Shown here in pieces: positions 50,442 to 55,208 of a stretch of 64,000 nucleotides of DNA. Positions within the stretch are counted from its first letter, which is position 1, and each line of letters opens with the position of its first letter. Source of the stretch: Minisyncoccota bacterium. GTDB lineage: Bacteria > Patescibacteriota > Minisyncoccia > Phycocordibacterales > UBA5272. The stretch covers positions 627,521 through 691,520 of the forward strand of contig JBAZJW010000001.1 of assembly GCA_041651055.1 (NCBI GenBank), written 5' to 3'. The notes beneath the pieces are model-generated. The model worked only from the letters and a program-made list of their open reading frames with translations, made no database searches and was not told the DNA's origin. A program made the translations under genes and the position numbers.

Positions 50442-52690
50442 GTGAATCACTGCTTGATGATAAAAAACGAAACTATAACCAACTAACCCGGAGGCCAAGT
50501 AACGTTTCGTTACTAGCCGCCGATAAGGCGGATTTTATTTTCTCAAAATTGTTAAGCAGATTGCAGTTCTCTGACAACAGAATCCCGTGCACAACACGCG
50601 CAACAGTACTGTTATCCAGTAGTAGAATTTGATTCACTGGGGTCTAGCGGAGTTTGTGACACGGACACATGAAAAAAGACAATACATGTAGAGAGCGGAG
50701 CGGTCCAATCTCTACAGTGATAGTTATGTTTCCTAATAGGAACATAAGAGCACACGGTGGATGCCTAGGCTCTAAAGAGCGATGAAAGACGTTGTCAGGC
50801 TGCGATAAGTTTCGGGGAGGCGCCTAACAGCCCGCGATCCGGAAATTTCTGAATGAGGAAACTCAATGCGAGTAATGTTGCATTGTCATAGCAAGCATTT
50901 GCATGACGCTCACCCAGGGAAGTGAAACATCTCAGTACCTGGAGGAAAAGAAAATAAAAATTATTCTGCAAGTAGCGGCGAGCGAAAACAGAGAAGCCCA
51001 AACCGACAGTAGTAATACTGTGCGGGGTAGTAAGATAGAAACGTAGTTTACTAGAAGAGTTACAAAAGGTATGTATAGATAAAGTTGTTGGAAAGCAACG
51101 CCAAAGAAAGTGATAGCCTTGTTATCGAAATGCATACCCCTCTTTTGTTTCTAATCTTGAGTAATTCGAGACACGAATAGCTCGGATGAATCAACCGGAA
51201 CTAACCGGTAAGGCTAAATATCTTTAGAGACCGATAGTGAACTAGTACCGTGAGGGAAAGGTGAAAAGAACCCCGGAAGGGGAGTGAAATAGAACTGAAA
51301 CCGTGTGTTTACAAGGAGTAGAAGAGGGCGCATCACACTGTGTGTGATGCCTTTAAACATTTAAATATTTAAATGTGCATCACGCTTAGCGTGATGCGTC
51401 CTCGACTGCGTGCCTATTGAAGAATGAGCCAACGAGTTATAGGTTACTGCAGGCTAAGTGGTATAAAGTCACGGAGCCATAGCGAAAGCAAGTGTGAATA
51501 GCGCGAACAAATTGTAGTAGCTTATAGACCCGAAGCCGAGTGAGCTTACCATGAGCAGGGTGAAGTTTATCGAAAGGTAAATGGAGGCCCGAACCAGTAG
51601 GTTGTACGACTCCTTTGGATGACTTGTGGTAAGGAGTGAAAAGCTAATCGAACTCGGTAATAGCTGGTTCTCTCCGAAATAGTTTTTGGACTAGCGTCGC
51701 GTGTTCCCTTTGGGGGTAGAGCACTGGAAGGTTTTGACTAGTAGCAATACGGCAACACCTATCAAACTCCGAATACCAAAGGTTAAAAATGCGGCAGTAA
51801 GACCACGGGGGCGAAGCTCCGTCGGTCAAAAGGGAAACAGCCCAGATCTCAAGTTAAGGCCCCAAAGTATATATTAAGTGTAAGCGAGGAGGTGGAGTTT
51901 CATTGACAATGAGGATGTTGGCTTAGAAGCAGCCATCATTGAAAGAAAGCGTAACAGCTCACCCATCGAGAGACTCTGCGCCACAAATAATCGGGACTCA
52001 AATATATCGCCGAAACTGAGGGCTTCATTGGTGTCACAACCATTGGAGCGGTAGGAGAGTGTTCCACTCTGCGTTGAAGCTAAAGGGGTAACCCATAGTG
52101 GAGCGTGTGGAAGTACGAATGTTGGCACAAGTAACCGCAATGGGGGTGAGATCCCCCCACGCCGAAAGAATAAGGTTTCCTATTCAATGATTGTCAGAGT
52201 AGGGTTAGTCGGGCCTAAGGAGATGGCGAATGCCGGATCCGATGGACATAATGTTAATATTCATTAACTCGGTACTAATGTGATGGGATGACGGAGTGTA
52301 GTATATAGAGCGACTTATTGGATTGTCGTTTATTGCGTAAGGGTGAGGTACAGGGAAATCCGTACTTCTGGTTTTAATGCCGACTCCAAGCGTTGTATGA
52401 AGATGATGGGCAACCTGATTCAACTCTATAAAGCACGCTTCCGAGAAAAGTCTCTACATCTGATGCATATCAGACGTGCGCATCGCAGAGCGATGCTTGA
52501 AATTTAAATATGTAAATATTTAAATTTCACATCACTAGGTGATGTGCATGCTTAAGTTAGTATTGATCCGTACCGCAAACCGACACAGGTATTCAGGTCG
52601 AGTAGACCAAGGCGAACGAGTGATATCTCCCTAAGGAACTAGGCAAAAAAGCGGCCGTAAGTTAGCGATAAGGCCTGCCCTCACCACTTT

Positions 52691-53143
52691 GCGTTTAAAG
52701 TCGCAGTGACAAAATTACTTCATCTACTTTGTCGCAGCATCGTTTTTGTCAGTCGCCGTACTATATGTACGACTTCTTCCAAAAGCTCGCTGCTTCTCGT
52801 AGCTAAAGCAATTTTCTCACTGCTTGCAAAAGTGGAGAGTTCTAGGAAATTAGATAAAATATTGAGACAAATCGTAATTACAGTAGAGCTACTGTAATTA
52901 CAAAAACATGTGTAATACGTAAGTAATTGTGGATTTCGTGAAGGAAATGTATGGACCGCGGTAGGTCTGCATCGAGATTTAAGAATCCGATGTGGTGGTG
53001 GCGTTCGACTCGCTATTATTTCATACGTGGACTTCCGGGAAGGTGACTTCCCGTCTTTCACGAAATTCATAATTACAAACTAATTACATACAAAATAGTG
53101 TGATGGAAATCAGTTTCCTCGAGCTCTTCATTACTTTGAAAAT
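52691..53143 (+). other. ~453-nt insertion at the tip of 23S helix 63 (IVS/expansion; non-coding)
   Basis: Flanking stem ctgccctcaccacttt (52675-52690) pairs with aaagtggtgggggc (53144-53157). E. coli has ~40 nt here. No credible ORF. Contains copy D of the 90-nt hairpin repeat. Confidence 0.7.
52715..52820 (+). repeat. copy D of the ~90-nt hairpin repeat family, embedded in the 23S helix-63 insertion
   Basis: TTACTTCATCTACTTTGTCGCAGCATCGTTTTtgtcagtcgCCGTACTATATGTACGACttcttccAAAAGCTCGCTGC... Confidence 0.65.
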
Positions 53144-53335
53144 AAAGTGGTGGGGGCCGCAGCGAAAGTTTCCCTAGCGACTGTTTACCAAAAACACAGC
53201 TTCCTGCGAACACGTAAGTGGATGTATAGGAGGTGACGCCTGACCAATGCGGGAAGGTTAAATATCGGTGGTAATTTATTGCTGGATGATATAAGCCCCC
53301 GTCAATGTCGGCCGTAACTATAACGGTCCTAAGGT

Positions 53336-53536
53336 ACTGGTCACAGCTAATGTGGCCAGTAGGACTGGGACTGTTATATGTAGTTTTTGTTAACATTCTA
53401 ATCATACGCCTACTAAAAGCTACCTCATTTACAGAAATGTAGATCGAGTCCGAAGTGGTTAGCGAGAGACCAACGCCACACACCTGAACGTCGTAAGATA
53501 GAAGGTGAAGATAGAGTCCTTCTTGAGGAATAGAAG
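53336..53536 (+). other. 201-nt insertion in 23S at the L1917 site (CCUAAGGU^AGCGAAAUUCC); putative small intron
   Basis: Removing 53336-53536 restores cctaaggt|agcgaaattccttgtc. The 5' exon ends in U and the insert ends in G, as required for group I splicing. No ORF. Confidence 0.55.
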
Positions 53537-54201
53537 AGCGAAATTCCTTGTCTGGTAAGTTCAGACGTGCACGAATGGCGTAACGACTGGGGAACTGTCT
53601 CAGGGAGTAGCTCGGTGAAAATACAGTACCGGTGAAGATGCCGGTTACCCGCAGATAGACGAAAAGACCCCGTGAGCTTTACTCTAGCTTGATATTGAGT
53701 ATGTTCAATTACTGCGTAGCATAGTGACGAGAGGTTTGATGTGTATGGTTTCGGCTGTACTCTACTCGACAGTGAAATAGTCATCTGTAATTGGGCATAC
53801 TCTAACGTGAACGGAAAAAACGTTCGCAGACAGTATCTGGTGGGGAGTTTAACTGGGGCGGTTTCCTCCTAAAAGGTAACGGAGGAGTTTATTAAGGTCA
53901 TCTAGGCGCGAATGGAAACCGTGCCGATAGCGTAAGGGCATAAGATGGCTTGACTGTAAGACGGGCATGTCGAGCAGACACGAAAGTGGGACCTAGTGAA
54001 CCTACACTACGCTTTAGACGCGGGTGCAGATTAACGGATAGAAGCTACCACGGGGATAACAGGCTAGTTGTGCCCAAGAGTTCATATCGACGGCACAGTT
54101 CGGCACCTCGATGTCGGCTCATCTTATCCTGGTGGTGGAGAAGCTACCAAGGGTATGGCTGTTCGCCATTTAAAAAGATACGTGAGCTGGGTTCAAACCG
54201 T

Positions 54202-54683
54202 GGAGGAGTGAATTATACAGAACGATTACTAACGTTATTTTCTCAAATAACATCAGTTAGCAATCAATTCAGTTTTGTATAATTGACTTCTCCTAGTTTG
54301 AACCCGAGGAGTTAAGACTAAACTTAACAAAAAGACATTAATCACGGCGGCATATATCAGTAATGGTATATGGCAAGCCAACTAATATCGGAAGAATCTT
54401 ACTCGAGCAATCGAAAGACAATTCCGAGGGAAGTATTATAGATTTTTTTGGTGAGGGGAGATTGGAATATGAGTGGATCCTCTGCGCGAGCAGTCAGGGT
54501 AACCTCGACCATAACTAATGGTCCTTCCTACCTTTCCTCACCTCTCCTAAAGAATCTAGAATACACCCGTAGAGACTATACGTTGGCAGTCTTGTTAAAA
54601 ACAAGATGAAGCTCTAGTCCGATCCCTTTAGAAATAAAGGTTCTCATGGTTTGGAAACCACAATGAGATGTAAAACACTAATG
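54202..54683 (+). other. 482-nt insertion in 23S domain V near E. coli position ~2590-2595 (GAACGU^CGUGAGACAG); putative ORF-less group I intron
   Basis: Removing 54202-54683 restores gttcaaaccgt|cgtgagacaggttggt. 5' exon ends in U, insert ends in G. No ORF inside. Confidence 0.55.
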
Positions 54684-55208
54684 CGTGAGACAGGTTGGTT
54701 TCCTATCTTCTGCGGGCGTTCGAATATTGAAAAGATTTGCTCCTAGTACGAGAGGACCGGAGTGAACTGACCTCTGGTGTGTGGGCTCTGACGCCAGTCG
54801 GAGCGCCCAGTAGCTATGTCGGGAATGGATAACTTCTGAAAGCATCTAAGAAGGAAGCCAACTTTAAGATAAGTATTCGTTGAAGGGTCGTAAGAGATTA
54901 TTACGTTGATAGGAGCTAGGTGTACGCACAGTAATGTGTTTAGCCAAGGCTTACTAATTACCCGAATCCTATTAGGAAACATGACTAGCACAAAAGGCTA
55001 GTTAGCGTATGGAGCACTAGTTGTCTACTAGAAAGTTTCATACTGTATTGTCTTTCATGTGGTGTGTGGAGGTTGCATGTTCTTACATTAATACTTCGGT
55101 ATTAATATAAGTCACGTGACTTCCACACACCACAGGAAAGAGTTCTTTTTTCATGTGTTTGATTCTGTATGGCTTGTAAAAGCGATACAAATAACTTGAA
55201 TGGTATAT

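Follow-up and report, generated by a model that had tools for sequence, protein, structure and literature searches.

The 23S ribosomal RNA (rRNA) gene in a 64,000-nucleotide (64-kb) stretch of Minisyncoccota DNA (assembly GCA_041651055.1, contig JBAZJW010000001.1; the whole stretch is referred to as the window) raises the question of what the extra sequence in this gene is and whether it is removed from the transcript. The gene comprises 4243 nucleotides (nt) as compared to the 2925 positions of the Rfam model and is ~1340 nt longer than E. coli rrlB. Chained blastn against rrlB (locus L001 of our comparison set) and reading of the Rfam alignments provided the breakpoints of five extra segments, which reside at the tip of helix 25 (H25), in a domain III hairpin, in the loop of H63 and at sites L1931 and L2593:

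50734-54976, plus strand, 23S rRNA gene (Rfam RF02541, LSU_rRNA_bacteria, 2179.5 bits, model positions 1-2925)
51329-51399, plus strand, palindrome of ~70 nt at the H25 tip, replacing a loop of ~10 nt (64-nt insertion in the Rfam alignment)
52476-52551, plus strand, enlarged hairpin of domain III (76 nt), immediately preceding E. coli position ~1581
52691-53145, plus strand, H63 loop insertion, 455 nt replacing 2 loop positions (455-nt insertion in the Rfam alignment)
53336-53536, plus strand, L1931 insert, designated class S, 201 nt between U1931 (53335) and A1932 (53537)
54202-54683, plus strand, L2593 insert, almost certainly a group I intron without open reading frame (ORF), 482 nt between U2593 (54201) and C2594 (54684)

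Thus, the 23S gene is interrupted, as stated in an initial annotation made from the sequence alone, which had placed a gene with five insertions at 50728-54982. We consider it likely that the gene carries insertions of three different kinds, that is a group I intron (L2593), an insert derived from group I introns (L1931) and extensions of helices (H25, domain III and H63). The inserts had been described as ORF-less, and indeed their ORFs have no Pfam match, produced no protein-family hit and contain no homing endonuclease remnants. A further early observation, a U preceding the insert and a G as its last base, holds at both L1931 and L2593.

The L2593 insert is matched by Rfam model RF00028 at 54329-54641 over the length of the whole model (41.3 bits, E 9e-9 to 1.3e-8), and the alignment contains P3 to P9 with a 103-nt insert within P6. 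The exon in front of the insert reads AAACCGU rather than GAACGU, as initially given, and helix 93 compensates for both of its departures from E. coli (AACC/GGUU). The following elements were assigned:

54202-54293, plus strand, hairpin at intron base 1
54296-54305, plus strand, exon clamp GUUUGAACCC, 10 bp with exon 54189-54198 (positions 2581-2590)
54311-54328, plus strand, small hairpin
54342-54350, plus strand, guide UCACG followed by GCGG, forming P10 and P1
54351-54372, plus strand, P2 hairpin with GUAA
54377-54382 / 54582-54587, plus strand, P3
54433-54564, plus strand, optional P6 extension of ~130 nt, missing from locus L051 and represented by the 103-nt insert in the Rfam alignment
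54573-54578 / 54616-54620, plus strand, P7 (AGACUA / UAGUC)
54589-54607, plus strand, P8
54625-54640, plus strand, P9 hairpin with GAAA
54642-54668, plus strand, P9.1
54683, plus strand, terminal G

In P1, GCGG of the guide pairs with CCGU 2590-2593, which puts G opposite U2593 as a wobble, and in P10 UCACG pairs with CGUGA 2594-2598 of the 3' exon. Both guide and clamp are conserved and covary among the homologues. That is, among the matches listed, the guide core CACGGCGG (mostly AAUCACGGCGG) recurs in 20 of 22 L2593 introns of the clamp family, and all seven introns with A2588 in the exon have U at the facing clamp base, whereas the 14 that have G2588 and an unambiguous clamp have C there. 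At least ~25 further L2593 introns came from a metagenome scan aimed at the L1931 intron. Two points weigh against the assignment: the window copy scores below the gathering score of RF00028 (50 bits), and its P1 comprises merely 4 bp and competes with the clamp for C2590. However, the low score is accounted for by the optional P6 extension. Locus L051, the closest homologue among the matches listed (89-92% identical), lacks this extension and reaches 56.3 bits, while L117 and L021 obtain 56.7 and 50.1 bits, respectively.

Two other views of this insert were discarded. A long exon-intron hairpin (54189-54305) cannot serve as P1, as it would put U2593 opposite C/U (A in most homologues), and a non-canonical or dead intron was dropped because the conserved downstream guide, AAUCACG followed by GCGG, gives a normal U.G-containing P1 and a P10. 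Exact empty sites, in which AAACCGU directly adjoins CGUGAGACAG with nothing between, are found in L007, L009, L010 and L043. Hence, the model match (E ~1e-8) and four insertion-free 23S genes from related organisms support the intron that had been suspected at this site, and we regard the L2593 insert as almost certainly a group I intron with complete core and no ORF. Since four relatives are devoid of the insert at the exact site, the intron may have been gained or lost recently. Judging from its sequence, it would self-splice from the pre-rRNA via the usual two transesterifications.

Relatives were sought in species-representative genomes using the M17 peptidase whose gene follows closely on the 5S gene. 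Seven were obtained (66-69% identity), whose record labels conflict (Candidatus Saccharibacteria in four cases, Candidatus Nomurabacteria in two and uncultured bacterium in one). Going by these conflicting labels, the host looks like a Saccharibacteria-like member of the candidate phyla radiation (CPR). Three of the seven relatives (L009, L007 and L010) have complete 23S genes of 4540-5028 nt, and pairwise comparison revealed that the L2593 insert is missing from them at exactly the predicted junction. All three carry the L1931 insert (79-89% identity to that of the window) and an H63 insert whose length differs from the window's. In addition, they contain inserts near E. coli positions 270-306 and 1163-1186 as well as a group I intron at L2500, all absent from the window. 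As the sets of inserts differ, insertions apparently turn over between close relatives. The L2500 intron, which lacks an ORF, has a canonical P1 (GCACCU/GGGUGC) and scores 50.1 bits with Rfam in L010, is located at:

L007, 5810-6408, L2500 group I intron
L009, 6761-7358, L2500 group I intron
L010, 4777-5261, L2500 group I intron

The 201-nt insert had been assigned to site L1917; its position and its flanking U and G were given correctly, and the actual site is L1931, between U1931 and A1932. P3, P8, J8/7, the 3' strand of P7, P9.0 and a terminal G are all present in it in group I order:

53336-53360, plus strand, hairpin at +1
53361-53371, plus strand, GGACU/GGGAC motifs
53418-53425, plus strand, guide-like AGCUACCU
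53427-53444, plus strand, P2 with GAAA loop
53446-53451, plus strand, GAGUCC
53455-53479, plus strand, P3 enclosing the J6/7-P7 remnant GAGAGACCAAC
53481-53507, plus strand, P8
53508-53519, plus strand, J8/7-P7' AAGAUAGAGUCC
53520-53535, plus strand, P9.0
53536, plus strand, terminal G

The J8/7-P7' stretch, GAAGAUAGAGUCC, is near-identical to the corresponding stretch of the relatives' L2500 intron. Complementarity to the exons is kept in four places: ACCU faces AGGU 1928-1931, GCU faces AGC 1932-1934, GGAC faces GUCC 1922-1925, and the loop GAGGAAU faces AUUCCUU 1938-1944. However, RF00028 returns only 16.7-16.8 bits for the insert (E 0.2-0.3), which does not amount to a group I model match. 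P3 (GUGG.../...CCAC) holds only UUAGCGAGAGACCAACG where a P4-P6 domain would be expected, half of P7 being kept and J3/4-P4-P5-P6 wholly gone, and the guide-like AGCUACCU presents A instead of a wobbling G to U1931. Attempts to fold the insert as a complete group I core failed, as the two GGAC motifs adjoin each other, and comparison with homologues resolved the fold.

For this comparison, metagenome contigs were scanned for GAAGATAKAGTCC followed after 10-40 bases by GAGCGAAATTCC, which returned at least 120 stretches. Together with the three relatives and the window, the scan yielded at least 116 L1931 inserts falling into three classes. Class C (at least 47 copies) consists of canonical introns that have GUUGCCU or GCUGCCU as their guide close to the 5' end, while class I (at least 21 copies) has the full core placed after a 5' module composed of a hairpin at base 1 and then AGGACU-RGGAC. 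Class S (at least 48 copies, 43 of them distinct, 191-285 nt), which includes the window insert, is built from the 5' module, a P2 hairpin with GNRA loop, P3, P8, J8/7, the 3' strand of P7 and the P9.0 hairpin, and its P3 encloses only ~16 nt (GAGAGACCAAC, the J6/7-P7 remnant). When classes S and I are aligned, a single clean gap is left, which corresponds to J3/4, P4, P5 and P6; class S has the 3' end, the guide context, the P2 loop and the 5' module in common with the full-core class I introns. Moreover, the transitional class S members L116, L128 and L134 retain a canonical AGAGACUAUAC / AUAUAGUCC P7. The class S guide reads GCUACCU (or GCUAUCU, and GCUACUU in one case) and places A opposite U1931 in 48 of 48 listed copies, as compared to G in 53 of 53 listed class C and I copies with a recognisable guide. 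In an Rfam run at the gathering threshold covering 12 loci, full-core L1931 introns were detected with 52-79 bits, while the class S copies in these loci all went undetected. The small size of the 201-nt insert, initially regarded as lying at the limit for group I ribozymes, is not an oddity here: class C introns of just 185-204 nt with complete core (L022, L028, L033, L036, L046 and others) pass the gathering score with 52-59 bits, which places the practical lower size limit of a full group I core in these communities, as judged by model scores, below 190 nt.

Covariation was assessed in 37 aligned class S sequences using a ten-helix model, with column shuffles and slid partners as controls. 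Cells were paired in 97.8% of the cases, compared to 82.3% in the shuffles and ~40% with slid partners. Double changes occurred in 29 of 54 pairs, and 303 cells were compensated versus 82 ± 8 in the shuffles. The signal is carried by the hairpin at +1, P2, P3, P8 and P9.0. In addition, the pseudoknot between motif 1 and GAGUCC (53446-53451) is compensated in two class S sequences, and the pairing of motif 2 with exon 1922-1925 shows one compensated change (L031). This pattern indicates that class S is not decaying sequence.

Two considerations detract from this evidence. The scan pattern forces the J8/7 motif and the terminal G, which are thus no independent observations within the family, although both occur in the window insert independently of that search. 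Furthermore, four pairings of class S (ACCU-AGGU, GCU-AGC, the three-pair P7 and GAGGAAU-AUUCCUU) are invariant, and covariation speaks neither for nor against them; among the exon pairings, the change in L031 is the sole exception. Nonetheless, the homologues make it highly probable that the L1931 insert of class S is a group I derivative that has lost P4-P6. Thus, the early suggestion of a group I intron at this place is correct regarding descent and incorrect regarding the P4-P6 domain and the G.U wobble, both of which are lacking. In known ribozymes, J4/5 of the P4-P6 domain reads the wobble pair, and the joint loss of P4-P6 and of the wobble G is therefore sensible as one evolutionary step. 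As a separate observation, the P6 loop of the 495-nt class I intron of L091 contains an ATG with a short ORF behind a ribosome-binding site, which may be the remnant or a miniature of an intron-encoded protein.

The H63 insert, by contrast with the two inserts above, yielded no match to group I or group II intron models at E<=10, only miRNA-precursor noise. It had been delimited as 453 nt at 52691-53143; the start and the preserved bounding stem (13 bp, 52678-52690 / 53146-53158) stand, and the end has to be moved to 53145, giving 455 nt. The insert folds as a branched rod (minimum free energy -191.6 kcal/mol, z -10.95). When the four sequences are aligned, they have in common the base stem, a long arm and one internal hairpin, and differ in the tip and in other modules. 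The internal hairpin, GUAAUUACAGUAGAGCUACUGUAAUUAC, and the base stem are invariant apart from a C-G/U-A exchange in the stem. The H63 region between fixed anchors has 206-763 nt in the clade of the window, whereas most of the CPR loci recovered have 39-50 nt and a group of loci that is not CPR-like has ~65 nt. One of its modules is a dispersed repeat:

52699-52825, plus strand, copy of a dispersed hairpin repeat inside the H63 insert, with apical CGTAC-N5-GTACG

The absence of a covariance-model match, the variable length, the modular build and the repeat speak against an intron at this site, and we are confident that the H63 insert is not one.

The repeat, a hairpin of 60-110 nt, is also present elsewhere in the window (22421-22492, 27095-27154, 34765-34838 on the minus strand, and 59070-59111), in other loci (L004 7174-7290, L007 17629-17733, L008 8470-8585) and within the relatives' L2500 introns. 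The copies in the window are always located directly 3' of a gene and in the orientation of that gene (four genes). They have no Rfam family match. The apical CGTAC-N5-GTACG stem is conserved, with two compensated variants, and this 5-bp stem is the only part supported by RNAalifold.

The two smaller palindromes resemble each other. The H25 element forms a rod of ~35 bp (z -9.99) and is absent from L007, L009, L117 and L021, H25 of the relatives being a plain hairpin (GAGG, a 10-nt loop and CCUC). The domain III element likewise folds as a rod (z -8.90) and is 73-80% similar to the H25 element, i.e. represents a second copy of the palindrome; in L007, L009, L010, L117 and L074 the corresponding hairpin consists of ~40 nt of unrelated sequence. 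A third related palindrome occupies a different site in L010 (1048-1131). Side by side with these elements we noted a bidirectional intrinsic terminator at 22530-22575, AAAAAGCATCACACGGTAGTGTGATGCTTTTTG, which has the same GCATCAC/GTGATGC stem as the palindromic rRNA inserts. GCAUCAC...GUGAUGC hairpins were therefore rejected as an rRNA-specific signal, since at 22539 the same hairpin forms a common terminator.

Intervening sequences (IVS) at H25/H45 of bacterial 23S rRNA are removed by RNase III without ligation (PMC11270868, introduction). The H25, domain III and H63 inserts each extend the tip of a surface helix as a long duplex, which measures 35-40 bp in the former two, and all three are sporadic among relatives. 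They fit IVS or expansion segments and not spliced introns, and a fallback reading of the initial annotation, inserts that are retained or of the IVS type, suits all three. Going by their structure, they would either be excised by RNase III, giving rise to a fragmented 23S rRNA, or be retained as expansion segments. The second outcome is a realistic alternative, which we consider somewhat less likely than not. H63 is the site of the eukaryotic expansion segment ES27L, the invariance of the base stem and of the internal hairpin suggests some constraint, and H63 is otherwise minimal in CPR, so that the extension projects from the surface. On the other hand, perfect duplexes of 35-40 bp are typical substrates of RNase III, and the modules come and go between close relatives, one of them being a generic intergenic repeat.

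What, then, happens to the L1931 insert? We slightly favour the idea that it is still removed from the pre-rRNA, be it through a weak group I reaction of its own or with assistance, because its conserved segments complement exon bases that fold otherwise in the mature subunit. Several facts argue to the contrary. All group I ribozymes characterised so far obtain J4/5 and the triple-helix scaffold from the P4-P6 domain, and efficient 5' cleavage depends on the G.U wobble; as both are gone from class S, autonomous splicing may be lost. Moreover, the group I intron at L1931 of Simkania negevensis was reportedly found to be unspliced by Everett et al. 1999.

A different outcome would be that the class S insert is retained and forms, in the mature 23S rRNA, an expansion of intron origin where H69 begins; we regard this as a serious rival, although a less likely one. 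The loss of P4-P6 and of the G.U wobble as well as the Rfam score of merely 16.7 bits would agree with retention, as would the presence of the insert in every member of the window clade examined; the strong structural conservation speaks for selection as RNA and leaves the purpose unspecified. However, the class S segments are complementary to exon positions 1922-1925, 1928-1934 and 1938-1944, which must form H69 and the H70/H71 region at the mature interface, and permanent pairing would be harmful there. In addition, the retained P1/P10 layout and the terminal G are sensible only for exon alignment and ligation. Removal of the insert thus remains our preferred reading. Trans-complementation by the P4-P6 domain of another intron in the same transcript was considered as its means and was ruled out as a general rule by three class S genes (L086, L121 and L134), in which the stretch from E. 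coli position 1793 to 2760 is free of further inserts. It is rather unlikely that class S represents a natural group I ribozyme capable of self-splicing without P4-P6 and G.U wobble, in which case the exon clamps and the pseudoknot between motif 1 and J2-3 might substitute for the missing parts. If true, class S would provide the first natural example of a minimal group I core of the P4-P6-less kind, directly testable in cultured Saccharibacteria. Either a much smaller core is enough for catalysis in the cell, or the intron is dead and undergoes processing or is tolerated at the H69 base, that is at the subunit interface.

The initial annotation had favoured the view that the H63, L1931 and L2593 inserts are all autonomous self-splicing group I introns. 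U before and G at the end of the L1931 and L2593 inserts, the previous record of group I introns at these two sites in CPR (PMC11270868) and the significant model match of L2593 agree with this view, which is nevertheless very improbable: H63 has no intron signature, sits at a helix tip, is built from repeats and ranges from 206 to 763 nt between the anchors in relatives, and L1931 is devoid of P4-P6 and the wobble G. Thus, the annotation was accurate in its observation and partly so in its interpretation, which applies to L2593, to one half to L1931 and not to H63. That the long gene is an assembly chimera or a pseudogene is hardly credible, because all conserved 23S blocks occur in order and with compensated helices, the gene shares its 212-kb metagenome contig with ribosomal protein genes, and the same organisation with the same inserts recurs in independent assemblies of other samples (L051, L097, L117, L007, L009, L010), which rules out an assembly artefact, even though metagenome assemblies often break at rRNA regions and the contigs of several relatives end in or beside rRNA genes, just upstream of the M17 peptidase gene.

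Downstream of the 23S gene the window contains the following features; Rfam did not find a 16S gene within the 64 kb:

55060-55140, hairpin GTGGTGTGTGGAGG...CTTCCACACACCAC in the spacer between 23S and tRNA genes
55209-55311, plus strand, tRNA-Lys(CUU)-like gene of 103 nt in the 23S-5S spacer (Rfam tRNA, 42.8 bits)
55336-55444, plus strand, 5S rRNA gene (Rfam RF00001, 61.8 bits)

The hairpin is conserved in L007, L009 and L010 and is possibly a processing stem. In the tRNA-Lys-like gene, which is missed by ARAGORN, the 5' strand of the anticodon stem is interrupted between positions 28 and 29 by a hairpin of 31 nt, much less than a group I intron would require; Rfam aligns a 42-nt insert where the model has 11. 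The gene includes the CCA and lies between the arms of an inverted repeat (GGTATATGG/CCATATACC). Rather than a working tRNA, it may represent a processing signal. In the relatives, this slot is occupied by uninterrupted but different tRNAs, which are flanked by ATATGAT...CCATATAT:

L004, 417-488, spacer tRNA
L007, 7137-7260 and 7301-7372, spacer tRNAs
L008, 423-494, spacer tRNA
L009, 7952-8025, spacer tRNA
L010, 6010-6082, spacer tRNA

Lys CUU, Trp CCA, Ala GGC, an odd Asn AUU and one with an 8-base loop (tcat) are represented, and the spacer of L007 has a second tRNA-like gene with an insert of ~52 nt. The slot thus behaves like an exchangeable tRNA cassette.

How do these results compare with previous work? 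In a survey of 348 CPR 23S genes, 82% had inserts of at least 100 bp (Tsurumaki et al. 2024, PMC11270868). Of the inserts, 45% matched the Rfam group I model, 222 of these being ORF-less, and the recurrent sites include 1917, 1931, 1952, 2593, 2604 and 2657, of which 1931 and 2593 are group I sites, whereas short unclassified inserts at IVS sites including H25 were regarded as probably of the RNase III type (PMC11270868). In Ca. Saccharibacteria, all 35 of the 35 surveyed 23S genes had inserts, and 64 of 66 rRNA inserts were of 250 bp or less and had no intron or endonuclease signature (PMC11270868); as cited there, removal of such short inserts from transcripts is credited to Brown et al. 2015. 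Group I introns occur in ~40% of Patescibacteria genomes (Nakagawa et al. 2026, PMC13011429). Taken together, the gene as a whole is expected CPR biology, as multiple rRNA insertions are already documented (PMC11270868). Three aspects appear to go beyond the surveys: a short L1931 insert that seems to have been derived from group I introns via loss of P4-P6 and the wobble G, the occurrence of full group I introns within a clade that is Saccharibacteria-like, and an H63 extension built from repeats. The survey classified inserts with the Rfam model only; here, an insert of ~200 nt is traced to group I introns that lost P4-P6, and class S probably corresponds to the short inserts that were left unclassified in the 23S genes of all Saccharibacteria surveyed. 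Unlike the surveyed Saccharibacteria (PMC11270868), the present lineage has a full group I intron (at L2593, and at L2500 in relatives) and the 455-nt H63 insert. A lineage labelled Saccharibacteria thus does contain full group I introns, contrary to the reported pattern. A shallow text search of the literature found no natural bacterial group I introns lacking P4-P6. The H63, H25 and domain III inserts illustrate that small genomic hairpin repeats settle at rRNA helix tips, which is a plausible route to expansion segments. Annotation pipelines and rRNA-based primers will mis-handle such genes.

Among known elements, the classical bacterial IVS (H25/H45; Salmonella, Leptospira, Coxiella) share with our inserts the H25 tip, the long perfect duplex and the patchy occurrence. 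H63 and the domain III hairpin are, however, no classical IVS sites, and the elements in the window stem from small repeat families, one of which is also present outside the rRNA gene. The L2593 intron occupies the same helix 93 site in the peptidyl-transferase region as Cr.LSU, the L2593 group I intron of the Chlamydomonas chloroplast large subunit (LSU) rRNA gene and the home of I-CreI. It differs from Cr.LSU in having no endonuclease gene and in carrying an insertion of ~140 nt, including the 10-bp clamp, between the 5' splice site and the guide. At L1931, group I introns of Thermotoga self-splice according to Nesbo & Doolittle 2003, as cited in PMC11809585, and a WPS-2 genome has an L1931 intron encoding a LAGLIDADG protein (PMC4192840). 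The window insert resides at the same 1931/1932 site beside the I-CeuI target and has the same J8/7-P7 motif; the Thermotoga and WPS-2 introns, however, possess a complete core and usually a homing endonuclease gene, whereas the window insert has neither P4-P6 nor an ORF. The Simkania intron reportedly uses this site as well and sets a precedent for non-removal, but has ~650 nt, a full core and an ORF. Finally, engineered deletions of P4-P6 from the Tetrahymena ribozyme, as made by Ikawa, Shiraishi and Inoue (2000) and by Doudna and Cech (1995), reportedly leave a P3-P9 domain that is weakly active or can be complemented in trans, and degenerate, factor-dependent group I introns occur in the rDNA of lichen fungi (a case touched on in bioRxiv 10.1101/2021.05.01.442275). 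In contrast to both, class S is a natural bacterial family, which is conserved in many lineages and has additional exon-binding elements of its own.

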